DNA from: Bacilli bacterium
GTDB lineage: Bacteria > Bacillota_I > Bacilli_A > RFN20 > CAG-826
Length of the DNA: 64,000 bases
Direction of reading: 5' to 3'
Assembly: GCA_017429285.1 (NCBI GenBank)
Contig: JAFRPF010000001.1
Coordinates: 40,299 to 104,298, forward strand
A model generated the notes under the pieces. The model did not search any database, was not told where the DNA came from, and saw only the letters and a program-made list of their open reading frames with translations. The first letter of the stretch is position 1. Every line of letters starts with the position of its first letter. Positions 32,663-43,333 of this stretch are shown in pieces. The position numbers and the translations under genes were made by a program.

Positions 32663-33569
32663 TCCTAATTTAAAAGAGAACAAATTCAAAAGAGCATTAG
32701 TCTCTCCTTTTAGAAATATTGTTAAAGCTATTTCAAAGACCGCTTATGTCAAATATCAATATAAATATATCACTCATCATAAGTGTGATTTAACTAACCC
32801 AACTAGATATACAGAGAAGCTCCAATATTTGAGATTATTTGTCTATCCAAAAGATCCTTTAGTCGTTCAATGTGCGGGTCGTGCAGGAGTAAGAGAATAT
32901 CTCAAAAAACGCGGATTTATTGATAAATTAATCCCGATTTACGGAGTTTTTGATAAATTTAGTGATATTGATTTTGATAAATTACCAGATCAATTTGTGA
33001 TGAAGTGTACCCATGCTTGTGCCTTTAATTACATCTGCTATGACAAATCTAAAATTGATAAAAAAGCTCTAGAAAAGAAATTTAATAAATGGTTAAAAAC
33101 TAACTACGGTAAAAAGACCGTGGAGATGCATTACGCTCCTATCAAACCACAAATAATAATCGAAAAATTAATGCTCGAAGATGGAAAACTACCAACCGAA
33201 TATAAGATCCACGTCTTTAACGGCAAAGCTAGAAGTATGTATGTTGTTACTTCTCGTGGAGTGGATATTAGATATAACAACTATTACATCGATTGGACAC
33301 CATTTGATGGTTCCCAATTTAATGGTTGGAAAAAGACTGATTATCCGTTAAATAAACCCGATCACTGGAATGATATGATAGAGATGTCTGAAATCTTAGC
33401 GGAACCATTCCCATTTGTCCGTGTCGATTTATATAACATTAATGGAAAAATATATTTTTCAGAGATGACTTTTACCCCCGCCAAAGGAACACTCATCTTA
33501 GACGATGATAAGTGTGATTTTGAAATGGGTGAATGGTTAGATATCAATAAATATATTAATGCCAAGTAG
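32655..33569 (+). CDS. TupA-like ATP-grasp protein
   Basis: NPTRYTEKLQY, LPDQFVMKCTH, PQIIIEK, EYKIHVFNG and FVRVDLY...IYFSEMTFTP. Confidence 0.85.
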   Translation: MSNPNLKENKFKRALVSPFRNIVKAISKTAYVKYQYKYITHHKCDLTNPTRYTEKLQYLRLFVYPKDPLVVQCAGRAGVREYLKKRGFIDKLIPIYGVFDKFSDIDFDKLPDQFVMKCTHACAFNYICYDKSKIDKKALEKKFNKWLKTNYGKKTVEMHYAPIKPQIIIEKLMLEDGKLPTEYKIHVFNGKARSMYVVTSRGVDIRYNNYYIDWTPFDGSQFNGWKKTDYPLNKPDHWNDMIEMSEILAEPFPFVRVDLYNINGKIYFSEMTFTPAKGTLILDDDKCDFEMGEWLDINKYINAK

Positions 33570-34506
33570 TGTGTGGGAAGCTTACTTCATACACCATTAA
33601 GGCATGATAAACTTCTTCATCAACATATATAGGTTTGGCCTTGGTATTTTCAGGGTCATCCTTTTCCTCTTGGCTATATTTGCCGTTATAAATATTATCT
33701 ACGCTATATTGCATTGAGAAACCGCATAATCTATTCGTATCAAATTTCTCTAACGAGAAACCGAAACAAATATACATTTCCCATCTTCCAGCGTAAGGTT
33801 CTAAGAAGTGATCATCACCAGAGTTTGTGGGAACATTACTTATTTTATAAGTAATTGGTTGATATGTATACCCGGTATCATTTTTTAAATATAAACCAAT
33901 ATGAAGAGAAATATCAGAATAGCATGTTGGTAAATTTTGATCGTCTTTTTTAACTACTGATCCTTTAAAATTTGTCATGAAATAAGAGGCATCATTACTT
34001 TCTTTGGGAAGTAAAACACCCATACCTTTTTTCTGATCTTTATTATTTGGTTCGAGTTGAGTTCTAGCTTGTTGGAAATCACCATTGCAGAACATTTGTC
34101 CATCAAATAGTTTAGAAGTCACACCATATTTAAATGAGTCACTATATTTGGATAATTTCACATCCGGACCATAGGCTTTTAAATCCTTATTCTCAGGAAC
34201 ACTATCTTTATCATATGTATAAGCATAACTAGCCCACAAAGGTTCGACTTTATGGAAGTTATTATCATTTAATGATAAGAAAACGTTATTAGTTTCTTCA
34301 TCTAAAGCGACTTCGTCTTTTTTTGCGGTGATCTTATTCTTTTCTAAATTTGGATTAATCCCATCATTCCAAACGTTATAATAATTCTCTAAAAAATTCG
34401 TGGAATTATAAGGAATGCCATTATAAGTTTCTTTTAATCCATATCCACAAGCGGTAATAAGAATTGATGGAGCAATTAATAATAATTTAAATCTTGATAA
34501 TTTCAT
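33556..34506 (-). CDS. Hypothetical lipoprotein
   Basis: Signal peptide with lipobox ITAC; overlaps the stop of the upstream gene. Confidence 0.75.
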   Translation of the reverse strand: MKLSRFKLLLIAPSILITACGYGLKETYNGIPYNSTNFLENYYNVWNDGINPNLEKNKITAKKDEVALDEETNNVFLSLNDNNFHKVEPLWASYAYTYDKDSVPENKDLKAYGPDVKLSKYSDSFKYGVTSKLFDGQMFCNGDFQQARTQLEPNNKDQKKGMGVLLPKESNDASYFMTNFKGSVVKKDDQNLPTCYSDISLHIGLYLKNDTGYTYQPITYKISNVPTNSGDDHFLEPYAGRWEMYICFGFSLEKFDTNRLCGFSMQYSVDNIYNGKYSQEEKDDPENTKAKPIYVDEEVYHALMVYEVSFPHTTWH

Positions 34507-35929
34507 CGTCTTTTTCCTCCTTATTTTCTTGTGGTTTTTCTTCTTTAATCACTGGTTTAACTTTGTTAAATGCATATCCTAATAAGAACAAAACAATAAT
34601 TAAAGGTGAACTAGTAAAGAATGGAGATAAATTATTAGCGTTTATAAGTGGGTAATTATCAAAAAGAATTAAGGAGACGAATAAGAATCCTAATACGTAT
34701 CCCGCAATTTGATATCTATCCGCTTCTTCATCTTCCCCATGATCTATATAATTAAATAATTTCTTAATAGCGATAATAATGCCACCAAGGAAGAATAACG
34801 CACCAAATAATCCACTACTTTGTAAGTTATCAAAAATCCAGAAACCAGACAAAACTTGTTTCACGCCATTTTCATATTGATAAGCATATAAACCTACTGG
34901 AATACCAAATATTTTCTCTTTAGAGAATAAATCTTGAAGAATAGCGTTGATACTAATAGCGAAGCGGTTGGAATTAAATAATCGATCCATTAAAGCATTC
35001 TTACTAATCGCATTTCTTAAACCAGTTGTAAATCCCCAATTCTTTTGAGCGTTTAAAAACAAAATGATTATGGCAATAACAACAATCGCTCCAATAGCGA
35101 TCATCATCCAATTAAATACACCACGATATTGTTTTAATTTACCCGCTAAGATAATAATCGCAATTCCAACAATTAAAACTAAATCGCTTAATAAAGTTAA
35201 TTTAGAAATAGTAAATAATAAGGAAATAAAAGCTAATATAGATAATACTAAATAGATAAGGAAAACATTTCTATTTTCTTTATATTTAATAAAGAATGAA
35301 GGAATAACAGCGGTTAATAATAAGGATGGGAATAATGACCAATAGCCAATTGAAACTTCACTAATCTGGAAGCCATAAAGCATATAAGCCATCGAACCAA
35401 TCGGCACTAATGAGGCTTTGCCATCATAAACAAAATAAGAATTCTTATATATTAAGGTATAAAATGGCACGTAATAGACCATCGTCGCGATTAAGTTAAT
35501 TAAAACAAATATTCCTAACGCGGAATAAATAACAAGCAAAGCGGTTCTTATTTTAAATTTAGAAATATAAGTAGATAAAAATCCAGATAATCCAATGCAT
35601 GTTAAGCATATTGGAACAAATATTGATTCCGCCACACCAATCGCACCAACAGAGTTATAGTTAAATCTACTTAAAGCGGTTAATAAACCAAAAACAAATA
35701 TTGGAAATATAAAAAACGCAAAAGAAGATATTTGATCAACTTTAATTTGTCTAAAAGTCACTAAAAGTAATAGTAACATTAAAACCAAGGATAAAATTCC
35801 ATAAAGCAAGAAGGAATGGCCTAAATAAAAAGAGACGAAGGCTAACACTTCTAAACATAAAAAGCCAACGACTATTCCATAATTTGAAAAATCAAATCTT
35901 ACTTTTTTATTTACTGTTTCTTCAGACAT
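34487..35929 (-). CDS. Multi-TM protein, O-antigen ligase/Wzy polymerase-like
   Basis: About 12 TM with a large loop before the last TMs (R...IFG.PVG...FDNLQSSGLFG); next to wzx and glycosyltransferase genes. Confidence 0.55.
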   Translation of the reverse strand: MSEETVNKKVRFDFSNYGIVVGFLCLEVLAFVSFYLGHSFLLYGILSLVLMLLLLLVTFRQIKVDQISSFAFFIFPIFVFGLLTALSRFNYNSVGAIGVAESIFVPICLTCIGLSGFLSTYISKFKIRTALLVIYSALGIFVLINLIATMVYYVPFYTLIYKNSYFVYDGKASLVPIGSMAYMLYGFQISEVSIGYWSLFPSLLLTAVIPSFFIKYKENRNVFLIYLVLSILAFISLLFTISKLTLLSDLVLIVGIAIIILAGKLKQYRGVFNWMMIAIGAIVVIAIIILFLNAQKNWGFTTGLRNAISKNALMDRLFNSNRFAISINAILQDLFSKEKIFGIPVGLYAYQYENGVKQVLSGFWIFDNLQSSGLFGALFFLGGIIIAIKKLFNYIDHGEDEEADRYQIAGYVLGFLFVSLILFDNYPLINANNLSPFFTSSPLIIVLFLLGYAFNKVKPVIKEEKPQENKEEKDDEIIKI

Positions 35930-36365: not shown

Positions 36366-36971
36366 ATGGACGAAATGAAGAGTAAAGAACAAATTATCGC
36401 TGATAATCTCGCCTATTATCGTAAAGCGGCTGGATTAACACAGCTTGAAATCGCTGATAAATTTAACTATTCCGATAAATCAATCTCTAAATGGGAAAGA
36501 GCGGAAGGTTTACCAGATGTTTTAGTGCTCAAATCTTTAGCGGATTTTTACGGCATTCAAGTCGATGACTTTTTTAATGAAGAAAAGAAGAAAACTCCTT
36601 TGACAAAAAAGAGTAAACACTACTTCATCGTCGGTTTAAGTGAATTATTACTCTGGTTAGTGTTCGCTGTCGCCTTTGTTTTGTTTGCTATTTCACCAAT
36701 TAAAGATGTTTTTCCTTGGTGGTTAATATTTATTTACGCTTCTGCCGCTTCATCAATTCTCGCGGTTGTTTGGTCTGGTGTTTACCATAATAAATTATTA
36801 CAACTTATCGCCACCTCTGGAATTATTTGGTTAAGTATTACATCTTTATTCTTAACACTATTATTAACTACCACGATGCCGATGCTTTGGCTATTATATC
36901 TTATTGGTATTCCCCTTCAAGGTTTAGCGGTGTTATGGTATTTCTTAAAAAGAAATTCACATAAAAAATAA
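36366..36971 (+). CDS. XRE/Cro-family HTH regulator with C-terminal TM helices
   Basis: NLAYYRKAAGLTQLEIADKFNYSDKSISKWERAEGLPD followed by about 4 TM helices. Confidence 0.9.
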   Translation: MDEMKSKEQIIADNLAYYRKAAGLTQLEIADKFNYSDKSISKWERAEGLPDVLVLKSLADFYGIQVDDFFNEEKKKTPLTKKSKHYFIVGLSELLLWLVFAVAFVLFAISPIKDVFPWWLIFIYASAASSILAVVWSGVYHNKLLQLIATSGIIWLSITSLFLTLLLTTTMPMLWLLYLIGIPLQGLAVLWYFLKRNSHKK

Positions 36972-36998
36972 AATCGGTTCATCGAAACCGATTTTTAT
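36968..36998. terminator. Bidirectional terminator
   Basis: AAAATCGGTT-CATCGA-AACCGATTTT. Confidence 0.8.
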
Positions 36999-37840
36999 TT
37001 AAGTCCATCATTGATATATAGAATACCAAGTGTCTTAGGACCACAGTGGGAAGTGATCGTCGCTTGCGCTACTGTTTCATAAATTGTTTTGAAGCCGCGT
37101 TTCTTTAAATGTTCTTTAGCGATCTGTACCATCTCTGGCGTGGCATGAGAATGAGTCACGAAGGCGATTGATAAATCAGGATTATTAAATTCCTCTAATG
37201 TGTCGCGACAATAATTATCGACACACTTTTCATTTTTACCACTATATTTCTTTTGTGGTGACATCTTTCCATTAGCCACAATAATTTGTGGTTTGATTCT
37301 GAATAAAGCAGCGGAGAACCTGGCTAAACCAGAGCATCTTCCACCTTTATGTAAATAATTCAAAGAATTAATCACAAAGCTAGCTTGAACATAAGGAACA
37401 CGAGCTTTAACTTTCTCAACAATCTCTTCTGGTTTTAATCCTTCATTAGCTAATTTACGCGCATAGATTGCTAACAAAGCAATACCTGTTGATAATGATT
37501 CAGAATCGATGACATAAACATTTTTCATAATAGAAGCGGCCGCCATCGCATTTTGGCAAGCAGAAGAAATACCACTACTTAATGAAATATGAATAACTGC
37601 GTCATGATTTCTTAATAATTTTGTAAAGTATTGATCAAATTGGAATTCGTTGACCGCAGCAGTCTTTGGTAAGATTCCTGTCTTATCAACATATTCAAAA
37701 ATCTCAGTGGGAGTGATATCTCCATCTAATCCACTTTTATCACCTAAAATAACAGTGAATGGAATAACACTGATGTCATATTCTTTTTGTAATTCTTTTG
37801 GTAAATCGAGGGTCGATTCAGTAGAAATGGCTATTTTCAT
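36995..37840 (-). CDS. DegV/FakB fatty-acid-binding protein
   Basis: STESTLDL, LSSGISS, LHKGGRC and HCGP. Confidence 0.92.
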   Translation of the reverse strand: MKIAISTESTLDLPKELQKEYDISVIPFTVILGDKSGLDGDITPTEIFEYVDKTGILPKTAAVNEFQFDQYFTKLLRNHDAVIHISLSSGISSACQNAMAAASIMKNVYVIDSESLSTGIALLAIYARKLANEGLKPEEIVEKVKARVPYVQASFVINSLNYLHKGGRCSGLARFSAALFRIKPQIIVANGKMSPQKKYSGKNEKCVDNYCRDTLEEFNNPDLSIAFVTHSHATPEMVQIAKEHLKKRGFKTIYETVAQATITSHCGPKTLGILYINDGLK

Positions 37841-37873: not shown

Positions 37874-38854
37874 TTAATTGACTCTCAAAAAGTCCTTAAT
37901 AGTCTGATCGTATTTTTCTAAGGCATTATTTCTAATATGCGAATGGCTTCCTTCAGTAAACCAAACAAACTTTTTATTCTTGCTCGGGCAAGCATCAAAT
38001 ACTTTAACGGCGTTCTCAGGAAGCGAATACTTATCATTTTTTGTATGGATAAATAAAACTGGAATATCAATCGTTTTAATATTATTGAGCGGTGAAGCTT
38101 TCTTAACCGATTGACCGGTGTACATCTTAAACCAGAACCATATTAAATAGAAAACTGGAAACTTCTTATGTCCTAAATCAACATAATGTCTTTCATAAGA
38201 TTCTAGGAAGTTAATAAAGACGCCATCGAAGACGATTTTTTCAATGAGCTGTTTCCCGTTTTTAAAATTATAAGCAATAGTACCAGCGCTTCCACCGACA
38301 CAGACGCAGTGTAAAACAAATTTTTCTTGTTTAAAATTATCGTGAATATAATTCATCCAAGCAACGATATCTTCGCCTTCTTTAATACCAACTGTGGAAT
38401 AATGGCCTTCACTAAAGCCATGACTTCTAGGATCAACAAATAATAAATTATATCCAGATTCTAAATAAGGCTTTGCGTAATAATAGGCGTAGATCAAACA
38501 CTCACATCTACCACATAAAAATGTCGCTGTTTTCTTATGACCGAAATCATAAAATTCACCCATTAATTTGAGCCCATCATTAATAATAGAAACTTCTTTT
38601 TTATATTTGGAGTATTGAGACATAAATTCAATACCTTCATCCCACATCTTCACCTGTTCAGGGTTATTAGGAGCAGAGCACACTCTTCCCCAACCTTCAC
38701 CCATCTTATTGCTAAGGGTGTGTAAATAAACTCTTCTAGCAATGGCAAAGACAAGCCAAATAGAAAATAAAAGAGAGGATAATAGGAAAATGGAAACGCC
38801 GATAATAACCCAGTGATACCATGTTAAATTAACTAAAATTAATGGCAAAAACAT
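37874..38854 (-). CDS. Membrane-anchored alpha/beta hydrolase (YqkD-like) with Cys at the nucleophile position
   Basis: N-terminal TM, DPRSHGFSEG, elbow LHCVCVGG, HTKND acid and GSH His. Confidence 0.8.
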   Translation of the reverse strand: MFLPLILVNLTWYHWVIIGVSIFLLSSLLFSIWLVFAIARRVYLHTLSNKMGEGWGRVCSAPNNPEQVKMWDEGIEFMSQYSKYKKEVSIINDGLKLMGEFYDFGHKKTATFLCGRCECLIYAYYYAKPYLESGYNLLFVDPRSHGFSEGHYSTVGIKEGEDIVAWMNYIHDNFKQEKFVLHCVCVGGSAGTIAYNFKNGKQLIEKIVFDGVFINFLESYERHYVDLGHKKFPVFYLIWFWFKMYTGQSVKKASPLNNIKTIDIPVLFIHTKNDKYSLPENAVKVFDACPSKNKKFVWFTEGSHSHIRNNALEKYDQTIKDFLRVN

Positions 38855-38874: not shown

Positions 38875-39813
38875 TTATTTTTTTGCTAAAACACTGGCTA
38901 AGAATTTTCTTTCTTCTTCACAGTCTTTACTGACTGGTCTATCCGCTAGGAAAAATAAGACTGCTAAACCTGGTCCGACATTCACACCGTTAGATTGACC
39001 TAAACGACACTTTAAGACGGTAGCCTTAGGAGCTACTTTATGAGCAATCTTCACAAATTCATCACATTGTTCTTCTCTAATAGAATGAGCACAGATAATT
39101 GTGGTTTTTTCTTCTTTTGTTAAATATTCTTTTAGGAATTCTTCCGCTACTTTATAGGAAGCTTTATATCCTCTAGCGTTACCTAAAACGCATGGCATAC
39201 CGGTTTCATTAGAGAAATCCGCCATTGGTTTAACACCAGCCATCGTTCCAAAGAAAGCTTTGGCTTTAGAGATACGTCCACTTCGATGAAGGAAAAATAA
39301 ATTATCTAAGACACCAACTTGATGTAAGCATAATTTTCTTTCTTCTAAGAAATTAAAGTTATCTTCTATACTCATGCCTTTACTTCTATTTTCGGAAGCT
39401 AAAACTGCTAGGATAGATATGCCCGCACTATATCTTTTGGAGTCAACGACATATAAATGTCTATTTGGATATTTTGCTTCAAGTTCATTTTTGGCTTGAA
39501 TAAATGCGTTATATGTTCCAGACATACCACTTGATAATGTGACCGATAAAACATCTTGTCCGTTTTTGAAATATTCTTCCACTCTTTGGGAGATTCTGAA
39601 TTGATTTGGTAAACCAGATTTGAAGTTCTCTTTTTTATCTAATCTTTTATAGAACTCTTCAAAGGAAATCGTTTCCCAATCGTAATCCGCATCATGATCG
39701 CTTCCGTCAGGATATAAGACGGTTCCTGGAACTGGATTTTCAATTCCATATTCTTTTCTTTGTTCCTTGCTTAAGTCCATGCAAGAATCTGTTAAAATGA
39801 CATATTTTTCCAT
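38875..39813 (-). CDS. DegV/FakB family protein, second paralogue
   Basis: TDSCMDL, LSSGMSGTY and LHRSGRI; C-terminal NVGPG in place of HxGPG. Confidence 0.88.
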   Translation of the reverse strand: MEKYVILTDSCMDLSKEQRKEYGIENPVPGTVLYPDGSDHDADYDWETISFEEFYKRLDKKENFKSGLPNQFRISQRVEEYFKNGQDVLSVTLSSGMSGTYNAFIQAKNELEAKYPNRHLYVVDSKRYSAGISILAVLASENRSKGMSIEDNFNFLEERKLCLHQVGVLDNLFFLHRSGRISKAKAFFGTMAGVKPMADFSNETGMPCVLGNARGYKASYKVAEEFLKEYLTKEEKTTIICAHSIREEQCDEFVKIAHKVAPKATVLKCRLGQSNGVNVGPGLAVLFFLADRPVSKDCEEERKFLASVLAKK

Positions 39814-40068
39814 TTACTTTAAATTCCTTTCAATGTAATCAATTACATCTTTTACATTAGTAAAATCATCAAAAGAGGAGTCTTGAAACTCAATATTAAA
39901 AGTTTGTTCAATAGAGATTGCTAAATAAAGAACACCGATTGAAGTTAAACCTAAATCGCTTCTTAAATCGCTTTCTTCACTAACATCTTCTAACAAACTT
40001 CCATTCGATGAATTAGCGAGTTTGATGAGCTCTTTTAACTTGTTAAATATTTCTAATCTAGTCATCAA
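39814..40068 (-). CDS. Acyl carrier protein
   Basis: 84 aa and acidic; L..DLGLTSI...L...IEQ.F.I phosphopantetheine motif (TS instead of DS). Confidence 0.85.
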   Translation of the reverse strand: MMTRLEIFNKLKELIKLANSSNGSLLEDVSEESDLRSDLGLTSIGVLYLAISIEQTFNIEFQDSSFDDFTNVKDVIDYIERNLK

Positions 40069-41578
40069 TATTCACCTTTCCCCTAATAATCTTCATCGCT
40101 GGAGTTCTTTTAAAATCTTCTTTTCTGATAACTATTTTACTGATACGTGAGAAAGAAGGTAACAAATTATTTATTTTTTTAATTTGTTCCTTTAAAAATT
40201 CTTCCTTATCGTTAACATCTAATTTCATCATTTCACCCATTCTTGGATAAACTGATAAAACTAATCTATTAGTGTTTTCCTCTAAATACACCATTGTGTC
40301 TTGAATGATATCTAATTCATCAAACTTATTTTCTAAATCAAATGGCGAAATCTTTTCTCCCGTAGGAAGAACGATAATTTCTTTAATTCTACCGACAATA
40401 TATAAAAATCCTTCTTCATCAAATCTTACTAGATCGCCAGTTTTAAAGAAGCCATCTTCTGAGAAAGCATTTTTATTTTCTTCTTCCTCACCATAATAAC
40501 AATCCATGACATTATCGCCTTTAATCCATAGTTCTCCATCGACGACTTTTAATTCTTGATGTGGATAAGGGAACCCAACGGAAGCGGGTTTATATTCACT
40601 ACGCGGATTACCAGAAACAAGGTTTGCGGATTCTGTTAAACCATAACCTGGTAAAAGAGTGATGTTATATTTCTTATATTCTTTAACAAGAAATGGAGCA
40701 ACCGTCGAAGCTCCGGCGATGATATAAGATAAAGAATCGCCTAACATATTTTTATTAAATTGTTTGGATAAGTTTAAACACATTTCTGCTAAAGCAGGAA
40801 CCATGACCATGACAGTCGGTCTAAAAACCGCGATATCTCTAAACATATCTTTATTATTTTGAGTAATAAATAAAGCACTACCGGTTTGTAAGGAAGTTAA
40901 TAAATTTCTCACTAATCCAAAAACGTGAGTTAACGGTAAAACTAATAAATATTTTTGTTTAAAGACATGTTTAATACCAAAGCAGCCGTTACAAGCGCCA
41001 CGACATAAAGCTTTATTATTTAGTAGTGCTCCTTTACTTTTTCCTGTGGTGCCACCTGTAAAAATAATTGAGGCAGGATCTTTAGGATTAACACTAACAC
41101 TAGGCTCCACTTTTTCGCTTGTGCTAGTGGCATCAATTAATGTCATTCTATGTGGAAAGTTAACTAAACCATCTACCTTTTCTTTTAATGAAGGATAATA
41201 CACCAAAGCCTTCATTTTGAATTTTATGGAGCAGCCAAATAAAGCTTCAGTGGGCAAAAAAGGAGGAAGTAAAACAGCCACTCCGCCTAATGTTTCAATC
41301 GCTAAGTAAGCCTTGACCCATTCCAAGCTATTAGGAGCAAAAACCCCTACAAAATCCCCTTTATTTATGCCTTTTTCCTTTAAAATCGCTCTAAAATGAG
41401 CAACTTCTAAATCTAATTGTTCATAGGTCCATGAACGAGAAATATCACTTAATGCGACATCTTTTTTAAACTCTTTAACGGAGTTTTCCCATAACTCACT
41501 TAAAGAATCAAAACACTTAATTCTTTCAAATTCTTCTTTAACTGTATAACTCACAAAATGATTTTCATTTACTAACAT
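40058..41578 (-). CDS. Long-chain fatty acid--CoA/ACP ligase (ANL superfamily)
   Basis: FTGGTTGKSKG, GYGLTE and FKTGDL...GRIKEIIV. Confidence 0.9.
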   Translation of the reverse strand: MLVNENHFVSYTVKEEFERIKCFDSLSELWENSVKEFKKDVALSDISRSWTYEQLDLEVAHFRAILKEKGINKGDFVGVFAPNSLEWVKAYLAIETLGGVAVLLPPFLPTEALFGCSIKFKMKALVYYPSLKEKVDGLVNFPHRMTLIDATSTSEKVEPSVSVNPKDPASIIFTGGTTGKSKGALLNNKALCRGACNGCFGIKHVFKQKYLLVLPLTHVFGLVRNLLTSLQTGSALFITQNNKDMFRDIAVFRPTVMVMVPALAEMCLNLSKQFNKNMLGDSLSYIIAGASTVAPFLVKEYKKYNITLLPGYGLTESANLVSGNPRSEYKPASVGFPYPHQELKVVDGELWIKGDNVMDCYYGEEEENKNAFSEDGFFKTGDLVRFDEEGFLYIVGRIKEIIVLPTGEKISPFDLENKFDELDIIQDTMVYLEENTNRLVLSVYPRMGEMMKLDVNDKEEFLKEQIKKINNLLPSFSRISKIVIRKEDFKRTPAMKIIRGKVNIDD

Positions 41579-42240
41579 TATTTATTACCTCTTTTATATA
41601 ACTCTTTTAACTCTTGTTCTTTATCAAATAGATATTTGGTGACTTCTTCGATTTGATTCATTCCAAGATTATCACCAAATTTCTCTTTTATATTTATCGG
41701 TTCACCAATGACAATTCTTTGCCTTTGAAAAATATTTTTTCTAATCTCGCGATATGTCGGAACGATTGGAACATTAGCTTGATAAGCCATCATGATTGCC
41801 CCACTTTTAAATGGTGACATCGGTTTATCATTTGAGAATGAAATATGACCTTCAGGGAAAATAACAATCATATTACCACCTTGTAATCGTAGTACAATTT
41901 CCTTAAAAGTGGATAAGCTTGGTTTTTCTCTATCTACTGGAATGCAACCAGAATTTCTATAAAACCATCTGGAAAATGGCTTAATAAATAATTCCTTCAT
42001 GACTACGAAGAACAATCTTCGATATGCGAATGCGCAGTGCAGAACCATGACGTCAGAATATAAAATGTGATTACTAATAATTAGGCAACCACCTTTTTGT
42101 TTCTTTTTTGCAAGTTCATTTTCGTATATCTTTTTGACTCTAAACCATAATAAAAATGGAATACCAAAAAATCTAAAGAGATCAAATAAAAAGTATTTGA
42201 AGTTTATAAAATGAGCTTGATACGGGTTCTTCTTTTTCAC
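41578..42240 (-). CDS. plsC: PlsC-type acyltransferase
   Basis: NHILYSD (HX4D), IPVDR and IFPEG; GTG start. Confidence 0.85.
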   Translation of the reverse strand: MKKKNPYQAHFINFKYFLFDLFRFFGIPFLLWFRVKKIYENELAKKKQKGGCLIISNHILYSDVMVLHCAFAYRRLFFVVMKELFIKPFSRWFYRNSGCIPVDREKPSLSTFKEIVLRLQGGNMIVIFPEGHISFSNDKPMSPFKSGAIMMAYQANVPIVPTYREIRKNIFQRQRIVIGEPINIKEKFGDNLGMNQIEEVTKYLFDKEQELKELYKRGNK

Positions 42241-42313: not shown

Positions 42314-43333
42314 TTAGAAAGAAGGAAACATTTTTCTAAATAGCCAAGCAAATAAAACGTTAAATGAAGCGCAGAAAATGACCACTAATGGAATGGTTAC
42401 ATTATAGTTACAGTGTAAAGTGGTTAAAAAGATTTCTAATAGACCATGACAGGTTCCCATTCTAATCGCCGTAAATAGTAGTTCTTTCCAAAGTCTTCTA
42501 AAGAAAGATTGGCTTGGATAAATATTATTTATTAATAGGAAATATATAAATAAACAAACAGTATAAGAGAAATAGGTAGTTTCTATAATAGAAAAGGAGC
42601 TATATTTCATTAAGGTAATCATCATGAACATTAATAAGGCATTACATAATAACGCGGGTATAGCGTGTAAAAAGATAATTGTTTGAATTCTAAATGTATC
42701 TTTAAAAGGTGAGAAATGACTTCTGGAATTACCATCTAAATAGATGGTTTCAATAGGAATGGTATATAAAGAAGCCTGCATGAGTTGAATTCTCACTACT
42801 TGGTTCATCTCATATTCATATCTATTACCTTTAATTTTTATTAAATCTGGTAAATATCTAATCGGGAATCCTCTTAATCCACATTGATCATCTTGAATAT
42901 ATTGTTTGGTTAGTAAAGACCTTGTGGTTTTGGAAAAATAATTTCCAAATTTACTTCTAAAAGGAACATCCTTTCCAAAGCTTCTCACCCCAAACACTAA
43001 TTGGTCAGTTTCCACTAATTTATCGTAAATACGATTGATATCTTTTAAAGAATGCTGTCCATCCCCATCAACGGTAATGACATATTTCGCCTCAGGATAA
43101 AAATTTAATAATTCTTTATATCCATATTTCATCGCCGCACCTTTACCTTTATTCTTTTCAAAGGAAAGGTATTTAACCTTATCTTTAATTTGATCAAAAA
43201 TTGGTTCAAATTCTTTTCCTGAACCATCATTAACCACTAAGATGTTAAAATCATCGTTAATTAATTCATCCACTACTTTTATAAGTAGTTCATCTGGTTC
43301 ATAACTAGGGATTAATATAATCGCATCTTTCAT
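42314..43333 (-). CDS. GT2 polyprenol-phosphate glycosyltransferase with a GtrA-like TM tail
   Basis: IPSYEP, VVNDGS, GKGAA, DGDGQH, DDQCGLRG and RYEYEMN; four C-terminal TMs. Confidence 0.85.
   Translation of the reverse strand: MKDAIILIPSYEPDELLIKVVDELINDDFNILVVNDGSGKEFEPIFDQIKDKVKYLSFEKNKGKGAAMKYGYKELLNFYPEAKYVITVDGDGQHSLKDINRIYDKLVETDQLVFGVRSFGKDVPFRSKFGNYFSKTTRSLLTKQYIQDDQCGLRGFPIRYLPDLIKIKGNRYEYEMNQVVRIQLMQASLYTIPIETIYLDGNSRSHFSPFKDTFRIQTIIFLHAIPALLCNALLMFMMITLMKYSSFSIIETTYFSYTVCLFIYFLLINNIYPSQSFFRRLWKELLFTAIRMGTCHGLLEIFLTTLHCNYNVTIPLVVIFCASFNVLFAWLFRKMFPSF

Follow-up and report, generated by a model that had tools for sequence, protein, structure and literature searches.

The 64,000-nucleotide stretch analysed here, referred to throughout as the window, comes from a rumen Bacilli metagenome-assembled genome (MAG) of the CAG-826 lineage (assembly GCA_017429285.1, contig JAFRPF010000001.1, positions 40,299 to 104,298) and carries on its minus strand, at 37874-38854, a gene coding for a membrane-anchored alpha/beta-fold enzyme of 326 amino acids. 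This enzyme has a cysteine, Cys185, at the nucleophile elbow, the two other triad residues, Asp274 and His304, are invariant, and the active site around them is remodelled relative to that of the nearest Ser-type enzymes. Its gene is linked to genes of the fatty-acid kinase (Fak) system, in which fatty acids are carried by DegV/FakB proteins and phosphorylated by the kinase FakA. From the comparisons described below we consider it very probable that catalysis runs through Cys185 as the nucleophile and that functionally the enzyme belongs with the Fak system.

Cysteine at the nucleophile elbow

The gene was taken from the list of open reading frames and has an ATG start, and its product was assigned using Pfam, AlphaFold2 and Foldseek. 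Membership of the serine-hydrolase-type Pfam families is above cut-off but marginal, with 33.7 bits against a cut-off of 27 for Hydrolase_4, a match carried only by residues 257-306, and 26.1 bits against 25.8 for Abhydrolase_1. The Ser nucleophile that defines Hydrolase_4 (“serine aminopeptidase S33”) is replaced in this protein, the column being Cys in 41/41 full-length clade representatives. An AlphaFold2 model built with a 42-sequence alignment reached a predicted local distance difference test score (pLDDT) of 93.5 and a predicted template-modelling score (pTM) of 0.89, and consists of an N-terminal helix followed by a standard alpha/beta domain with the alternating strand and helix pattern of the alpha/beta-hydrolase fold and an elbow at residues 184-187. 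Foldseek returned 1529 fold matches in the PDB at E ≤ 0.001, the best 50 of which were all alpha/beta hydrolases, the top match being the Pyrococcus furiosus esterase Pf2001 (5G59; E = 6e-17, TM-score 0.65/0.76). The order of Cys185, Asp274 and His304 is the nucleophile, acid and His order demanded by the superfamily, and the elbow motif of a nucleophile set between small residues (small-x-Nu-x-small) reads C-V-C-V-G. The residues concerned are the following.

38300-38302, minus strand: codon TGT of Cys185, the nucleophile-elbow residue, placed by conservation, profile alignment with 5G59 and the AlphaFold2 elbow
38033-38035, minus strand: codon GAT of Asp274 (HTKND), the triad acid, invariant in 42/42 homologues and 113/113 representatives, aligned with the Asp of Pf2001 (GRRDTL)
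37943-37945, minus strand: codon CAT of His304 (GSHSH), the triad base, invariant in 42/42 and 113/113, aligned with the His of Pf2001 (APHVR)
38288-38290, minus strand: codon AGC of Ser189 (GGSAG), a rejected rival candidate for the nucleophile, lying in helix 187-196 and poorly conserved

A sequence-only reading of this DNA had placed a Cys codon, TGT at 38302-38300, at the nucleophile elbow, with the acid (HTKND) and the His (GSH) retained. Reading of the minus strand bears out the position, the reverse complement of 38311-38290 being CAC TGC GTC TGT GTC GGT GGA, or H-C-V-C-V-G-G. In the model a strand at 178-184 leads into Cys185-Val186 and then into helix 187-196. Asp274 and His304 are both present and invariant.

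Conservation of Cys185 is far above what chance would give. Of the homologues, which reach down to 30% identity, 41/42 have Cys in this column, the sole exception (P0116) reading D-G-I-S-M-G, and Gly187 is invariant among the 42. When 1.8 billion cluster representatives were searched exhaustively, 59 proteins reached E ≤ 1e-30; all of these that were full-length with intact Asp and His had Cys at the 185 column, except for four with Ser. Among full-length clade representatives, taken from clusters at 50% identity, Cys was found in 41/41, including sequences with as little as ~28% identity. The canonical G-x-C-x-G is present in 37/41 of them, position 183 being Gly in 37/41, and in the subclade of the window protein this first Gly of the motif is also replaced by Cys (Cys183). 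All of the next-closest relatives (72/72) have Ser at the 185 column within the consensus LHG[IV]SMGG, which corresponds to the LHGxSMG against which the Cys had originally been noticed. These relatives are membrane-anchored Hydrolase_4-type (“YqkD-like”) proteins. Finally, alignment of the family profile with Pf2001 (E = 3e-23) set Cys185, Asp274 and His304 on the columns of the GFSMG Ser, the Asp and the His. Three independent lines, namely conservation, profile alignment and structural model, therefore identify Cys185 as the predicted nucleophile, and the invariance of Asp274 and His304 together with Cys in 41/41 representatives down to ~28% identity is the triad pattern expected of a working enzyme. 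A strain-specific inactivating change, which had been named as a possible undoing of the proposal, does not fit a Cys that is found clade-wide (41/41).

The same applies to the nearby Ser189 of G-G-S-A-G, which could have been the true nucleophile with Cys185 an incidental strand residue, a possibility that we regard as exceedingly improbable. GGSAG does match the GxSxG pattern, and a single-sequence phmmer alignment sets it on the GFSMG of Pf2001; this placement was rejected as a local artefact, being overruled by the family alignment, the profile and the AlphaFold2 model. The family profile puts Cys185, not Ser189, on the Pf2001 Ser, and the Ser of HG[IV]SMGG in the 72 Ser-type relatives is aligned with Cys185. 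In the model Ser189 sits inside the post-elbow helix (187-196), three residues into it, and its conservation is low, at 25/42 among close homologues and 10/41 among clade representatives, Ala being the commonest residue at this position.

The N-terminal membrane anchor that had been proposed along with the Cys nucleophile is also well supported, by a model helix at residues 11-47 and by a hydrophobic span in 85/86 clade members.

38714-38824, minus strand: N-terminal membrane helix, residues 11-47, predicted N-out/C-in from AlphaFold2 and the Lys/Arg bias

Lys+Arg was counted in the 15 residues on either side of the span in the 85 clade members in which one was detected, averaging 0.25 before it and 4.08 after it, with more on the C side than on the N side in 82/85. 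Because of this C-side excess and the positive-inside rule, the catalytic domain is predicted to face the cytoplasm, where DegV, FakA, the acyl carrier protein (ACP) and the acyl ligase act.

The Cys clade and its remodelled active site

A quick maximum-likelihood tree was built from 113 representatives; in it the Cys sequences formed one clade of 45 representatives with 4 Ser sequences nested in it, and 3 changes of nucleophile state are required, compared with ~33 for shuffled labels. The nearest sequence relatives, at E-values of 1e-25 to 1e-17, are the membrane-anchored Ser-type Hydrolase_4 proteins, which resemble the Cys clade in length, in carrying the N-terminal helix and the DxRxHGxS motif, and in how the triad residues are ordered and spaced. 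Their consensus reads HGY-S ... LHG[IV]SMGG ... D ... GA-H, and they differ in having Ser at the elbow, Tyr or Phe where Arg follows the conserved strand-3 Gly in the Cys clade, and no H-S-x-x-R. Two segments in which the Cys clade departs from them, and the individual positions that change along with the nucleophile, are listed below.

38501-38509, minus strand: Arg116-Cys117-Glu118, in the loop after strand 3, where G-R-x-E replaces the H-G-Y-x-S of the Ser relatives
37931-37942, minus strand: Ser305-His306-Ile307-Arg308, directly after the catalytic His (H-S-x-x-R), absent from the Ser relatives
Position 116: Arg in 40/41 of the Cys clade; Tyr or Phe in the Ser relatives
Position 118: Glu in 37/41 of the Cys clade; Ser, Gly or Ala in the Ser relatives
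Position 223: His in 35/41 of the Cys clade; Val, Gln or Glu in the Ser relatives
Position 305: Ser in 41/41 of the Cys clade; Ala or Gly in the Ser relatives
Position 306: basic (His, Arg or Lys) in 36/41 of the Cys clade; variable in the Ser relatives
Position 308: Arg in 38/41 of the Cys clade; mostly Tyr in the Ser relatives

Judged by these co-varying residues, the Cys clade is best described as a conserved redesign of the active site and not as an inactivating lesion. Four further Cys residues (59, 117, 119 and 183, in WGRVCS, GRCEC and HCVCVG) are conserved in the subclade of the window protein, close to the predicted active-site loops, but their conservation does not extend clade-wide (Cys59 in 22/41). 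Clade members with apparent domain fusions (P0067, P0141, P0153 and P0174) were set aside, as their extra parts are unrelated or domainless and look chimeric or mis-called.

Pf2001 is the best match among solved structures by both profile and fold, with triad columns corresponding one to one, yet it has Ser in GFSMG, a 275-residue chain without room for the N-terminal helix, and only 22-24% identity. A parallel for the remodelled site is offered by dienelactone hydrolase, the classic Cys alpha/beta enzyme, whose nucleophile lies in a GxCxG(G) box and in which a Cys123-His202-Asp171 triad works with Glu36, Arg81 and Arg206 (PMC4108320). Compared by published residue numbers, the spacing of its His202 and Arg206 equals that of His304 and Arg308 here, and the acidic Glu36 is one of its key catalytic residues (PMC4108320). 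In the window protein Glu118 lies with Arg116 in the post-strand-3 loop. Dienelactone hydrolase differs in being soluble and in acting on small lactones. The window protein gave no match to the Pfam DLH family (PF01738) at E ≤ 0.01, no dienelactone hydrolase was found among its best 50 fold or best 60 profile matches, and none proper was among the listed matches of a PDB profile search (E ≤ 10) and a search with a C-terminal fragment, one “DLH domain-containing protein” (7CWQ) being matched at E = 1.5. One clade member, P0077, does pass the Pfam DLH cut-off (26 versus 21 bits), in the Asp-His region only (profile positions 130-203). The resemblance to dienelactone hydrolase looks convergent.

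PhaC and BAAT are also Cys-Asp-His alpha/beta enzymes; they form a thioester acyl-enzyme and pass the acyl group from a thioester donor to an acceptor, not to water. The window protein shares with them the fold and the Cys-Asp-His triad, and they differ in size, in domain make-up and in having no Fak context. The PhaC family was absent from its Pfam and NCBIfam matches, and neither PhaC nor BAAT was among the listed fold and profile matches. Since no membership of the PhaC or dienelactone hydrolase families was found, the exchange of Ser for Cys looks like one independent evolutionary switch within a lineage of Ser esterases. A literature search on FakB/DegV-linked hydrolases, Cys alpha/beta acyltransferases and the GxCxG motif returned only PhaC, dienelactone hydrolase, SAT domains and ObiF-type thioesterases, and nothing on this Cys hydrolase clade.

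Genomic context and host physiology

In the window the hydrolase is the fifth gene of a tightly packed, co-directional run of six, with a gene for a family 2 glycosyltransferase (GT2) on the same strand ~70 bp upstream of the run. The genes are given here in the order of transcription.

42314-43333, minus strand: GT2 glycosyltransferase (Glycos_transf_2, 3e-15), the C-terminal third past the match hydrophobic in translation
41578-42240, minus strand: PlsC-family acyltransferase (Pfam Acyltransferase, 7e-27), matching the acyltransferase half of Aas models
40058-41578, minus strand: AMP-forming acyl ligase, a putative acyl-ACP synthetase (AMP-binding, 2e-62)
39814-40068, minus strand: ACP of 84 amino acids (PP-binding, 2e-09; NCBIfam ACP models)
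38875-39813, minus strand: DegV/FakB-type fatty-acid-binding protein directly upstream of the hydrolase (Pfam DegV, 1e-47; NCBIfam TIGR00762)
37874-38854, minus strand: the Cys hydrolase
36995-37840, minus strand: second DegV/FakB paralogue, directly downstream and last in the operon (Pfam DegV, 7e-57)
36995-36970: terminator-like hairpin after the last operon gene

The ligase also matches the ligase half of models for Aas-type acyl-[ACP]--phospholipid O-acyltransferases. The PlsC-type and ligase genes thus match the two halves of E. coli Aas, or of the split acyl-ACP synthetase and lysophospholipid acyltransferase of chlamydiae, with a dedicated ACP beside them; the likeness lies in these neighbours and not in the hydrolase, and we know of no Aas system with a Cys hydrolase or a DegV partner. 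The clostridial fatty-acid-amide pathway (OaaA/ACP/OaaC), which employs a condensation domain, is distinct from the system described here (PMC13310621).

Convergent with the end of the operon, at 36366-36971 on the plus strand, lies a gene for a 201-residue protein with an XRE-type helix-turn-helix and a hydrophobic C-terminal half that looks membrane-spanning; this could be a membrane-bound regulator. Beyond it are two overlapping genes without a Pfam match (33556-35929, minus strand). The first (34487-35929, minus strand) codes for 480 amino acids whose largely hydrophobic translation suggests many membrane spans, and the second (33556-34506, minus strand) for 316 amino acids with an N-terminus that reads like a lipoprotein signal peptide (“LLLIAPSILITAC”).

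The neighbourhood was compared across carriers of the Cys hydrolase, taking one genome per species. Carriers comprise Bacilli with genomes of ~1 Mb and Clostridia (Oscillospiraceae, Acutalibacteraceae, Lachnospiraceae and Butyrivibrio). In 66/74 carriers the hydrolase has a DegV gene no more than 400 bp away, and 47 carriers have two DegV genes within 1.5 kb. A GT2 homologue is found within 6.5 kb in 35/37 genomes, and the ligase/PlsC/ACP cassette within the same distance in 23/37. The deepest-branching Cys members that were placed keep the Fak link alone: at 28% identity (P0157) the hydrolase ends a DegV-FakA-hydrolase operon with a 2-bp gap after FakA, and at 34% identity (P0150) it directly follows a DegV-FakA fusion. 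Among the loci of this kind, L089 (1705-3654) shows a fusion of 649 amino acids (DegV + Dak2 + FakA-like_M) upstream of a deep-branching Cys hydrolase, and L090 (2492-5954) a DegV-FakA-hydrolase operon. In Clostridia the hydrolase gene and a DegV-DegV-FakA-PlsX operon are divergently oriented. The link to the fakB/degV and fakA genes is conserved, and the conserved partner of the clade is the fatty-acid kinase system (DegV/FakB), not the ACP and ligase. The sequence-only reading had drawn its functional suggestion from the ACP and ligase neighbours, which prove to be the less conserved association (cassette in 23/37 versus DegV in 66/74); its suggestion that the enzyme may be an acyltransferase or thioesterase rather than a lipase is plausible. 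By comparison, none of the Ser-type paralogues that were examined is adjacent to a DegV gene, unlike the Cys hydrolase. The nested Ser member P0159 has no DegV or Fak neighbour; it is the only Ser member of the clade with a readable context, the contigs of the others being short.

The clostridial hydrolase is placed inside a larger lipid island, exemplified by an Acutalibacteraceae MAG (L025:391-14341) and similar in L017, L021, L028 and L072. This island also contains two Ser-type hydrolases, a GT2, a CE4 “polysaccharide deacetylase”, an Sfp-type phosphopantetheinyl transferase, a fusion of AMP-ligase and ACP, two PlsC, an ACP and a protein of the LRAT family (NlpC/P60-like). Because the pairing of GT2 and CE4 recalls hexosamine-glycolipid synthesis, the island may build an acylated aminoglycolipid.

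The host genome (1.26 Mb, 33.8% GC, 94.5% complete) encodes FakA, PlsX, PlsY and six DegV paralogues, as well as two ACPs, three AMP-ligases and four PlsC-like genes, a fatty-acid scavenging set that is unusually rich for such a small genome. No ketoacyl synthase was found in it at 94.5% completeness, and the host therefore probably cannot make fatty acids and builds its membrane from external ones. Among other carriers, 17/28 also lack a ketoacyl synthase and 26/28 have PlsY. Two simpler explanations for the presence of the hydrolase were considered on this basis: a role as a substitute for PlsY was ruled out by the presence of PlsY in the host and in 26/28 carriers, and a role as a marker of fatty-acid auxotrophy is only partly true, as the carriers outside these 17/28 do have a ketoacyl synthase. 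The host also has a Ser-type paralogue (contig C42:91986-92912; MHGHVSN ... GTSMGG ... GHCHS) with an N-terminal hydrophobic segment and no adjacent DegV.

Proposed acyl-transfer role and its alternatives

For the acyl donor, the acceptor and the outcome of the reaction, transfer or hydrolysis, we infer the following from the residues of the active site and the gene neighbourhood. The enzyme would face the cytoplasm, tethered to the membrane by its one N-terminal helix, and would act alongside the FakB/DegV carriers and the FakA kinase in the use of external fatty acids. Cys185, assisted by His304 and Asp274, would attack an activated acyl group as the thiolate; the donor could be the acyl-phosphate that FakA generates on FakB, or acyl-ACP derived from the neighbouring ligase and ACP or from PlsX. 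The leaving group, phosphate or phosphopantetheine, would be held by the clade-specific residues Arg116, His223, Ser305, His306 and Arg308, the covalent intermediate would be a fatty-acyl thioester, and the S-acyl enzyme would be resolved by a membrane acceptor (a lyso- or glycolipid) or by water. We hold this activated-donor acyl-transfer mechanism in the Fak pathway tentatively, at a little short of an even chance. An activated acyl donor is preferred because, to our knowledge, every characterised Cys alpha/beta enzyme acts on activated acyl groups, because the co-evolved basic and polar residues would suit a phosphate or phosphopantetheine, and because Ser-type paralogues that could carry out plain ester hydrolysis share the same genomes and islands. 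The substrates are coenzyme A (CoA) thioesters for PhaC and BAAT and enol-lactones for dienelactone hydrolase. For ObiF and similar Cys-type thioesterase domains they are thioesters on a carrier (PMC6668435).

In a narrower form of this proposal, which we think unlikely, the Cys clade would be a new consumer of the acyl-phosphate made by FakA and FakB, a third outlet besides PlsX and PlsY. The thioester would then be formed from acyl-phosphate, with Arg116 and Arg308 gripping the phosphate, and the acyl group would be passed to a non-canonical acceptor such as a GT2-made glycolipid, a lysolipid or a protein.

Several observations weigh against an acyl-transfer role tied to the Fak system. Among solved structures, the nearest are ordinary enzymes with a Ser nucleophile, namely the esterase Pf2001, the TTL lipase, ABHD6 and monoglyceride lipases, and these would suit a simple deacylase just as well. 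All known acyl-phosphate steps are already provided for, as PlsX is encoded by the host and PlsY by 26/28 carriers. The hydrolase gene is accessory, being found in 7/81 genomes of the same order and in 5/41 genera, and the 75 carriers found are all rumen or gut MAGs or uncultured records. In the quick tree support is weak at many forks, and the nucleophile has to change state 3 times, not once.

The main rival, which we consider somewhat unlikely, would make the enzyme a lipid deacylase upstream of Fak, an esterase of the lysophospholipase or monoacylglycerol lipase kind at the inner face of the membrane. It would release the fatty acids of complex lipids, whether imported or resident, and feed them to the flanking FakB, while PlsC, ligase and ACP re-acylate the lyso-products in a Lands-type cycle. 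ABHD6 and the monoacylglycerol lipases act on membrane lipids through a cytosol-facing alpha/beta domain, with a single N-terminal anchor, and the anchor and cytosolic domain predicted here follow the same plan. The fold and profile neighbours are indeed esterases, lipases, ABHD6 (7OTS) and monoglyceride lipases; the latter two differ in their Ser nucleophile, in being eukaryotic or soluble bacterial proteins and in having no Fak linkage. Many carriers are probably fatty-acid auxotrophs, the ligase and PlsC match the two halves of the Aas models for lysophospholipid re-acylation, and a precedent is available in Fak-using S. aureus, in which the lipase Geh acts on lipids (PMC10117073). Such a role would, however, leave the exchange of Ser for Cys together with Arg116, Glu118, Ser305 and Arg308 unexplained, as the lipid esterases of this fold use Ser, and Ser-type paralogues accompany the Cys enzyme both in the host genome and in the clostridial island. 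Free fatty acids, moreover, already predominate among rumen lipids.

The enzyme could instead be a thioesterase for acyl-ACP or acyl-CoA, a valve between the ACP and acyl-phosphate pools that frees fatty acid from its carrier for FakB and FakA and thereby, via acyl-phosphate, for PlsY. The ACP and ligase genes of the same operon (within 6.5 kb in 23/37 genomes), the presence of the thioesterase DcsB among the profile and fold neighbours and the existence of Cys-type thioesterase domains (PMC6668435) would be in keeping with this. PlsX, which is present, already interconverts acyl-ACP and acyl-phosphate, deep-branching members occur with FakB and FakA and with no ACP or ligase among the genes called around them, and hydrolysis alone gives no reason for a Cys; we therefore judge a thioesterase to be quite unlikely. 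It appears very unlikely that the protein does not depend on Cys for catalysis and instead docks FakB at the membrane, be it as a pseudoenzyme for lipid binding or scaffolding or as a thiol redox sensor. The tight and conserved adjacency to DegV could mean a physical partner, and the additional Cys59, Cys117, Cys119 and Cys183 are conserved in the subclade; the extra Cys are not clade-wide, however (Cys59 in 22/41; position 183 Gly in 37/41), and invariant Asp274 and His304 with Cys185 in 41/41 down to ~28% identity argue for catalysis.

Fatty-acid kinase is the entry point of host and dietary fatty acids in Firmicutes, with PlsX and PlsY as its known outlets, and the linkage of the Cys hydrolase to this system points to an undescribed acyl-handling step in the use of external fatty acids. 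Cys-nucleophile alpha/beta enzymes are already known as a kind; what is new here is an uncharacterised clade, known only from MAGs, that is tied to the fatty-acid kinase as a conserved partner with an unusual Cys nucleophile and was found only in uncultured gut and rumen lineages. The well-delimited and apparently independent switch from Ser to Cys, with its co-evolved residues, joins the small set of Cys enzymes of the alpha/beta fold and should be useful for learning when this fold favours acyl transfer over hydrolysis. If the Cys clade were indeed a third outlet for acyl-phosphate, gut and rumen Firmicutes would have an ACP-independent route of acylation. In either case the conserved partner enzyme marks a concrete, testable gap in how such bacteria build or remodel their membranes.

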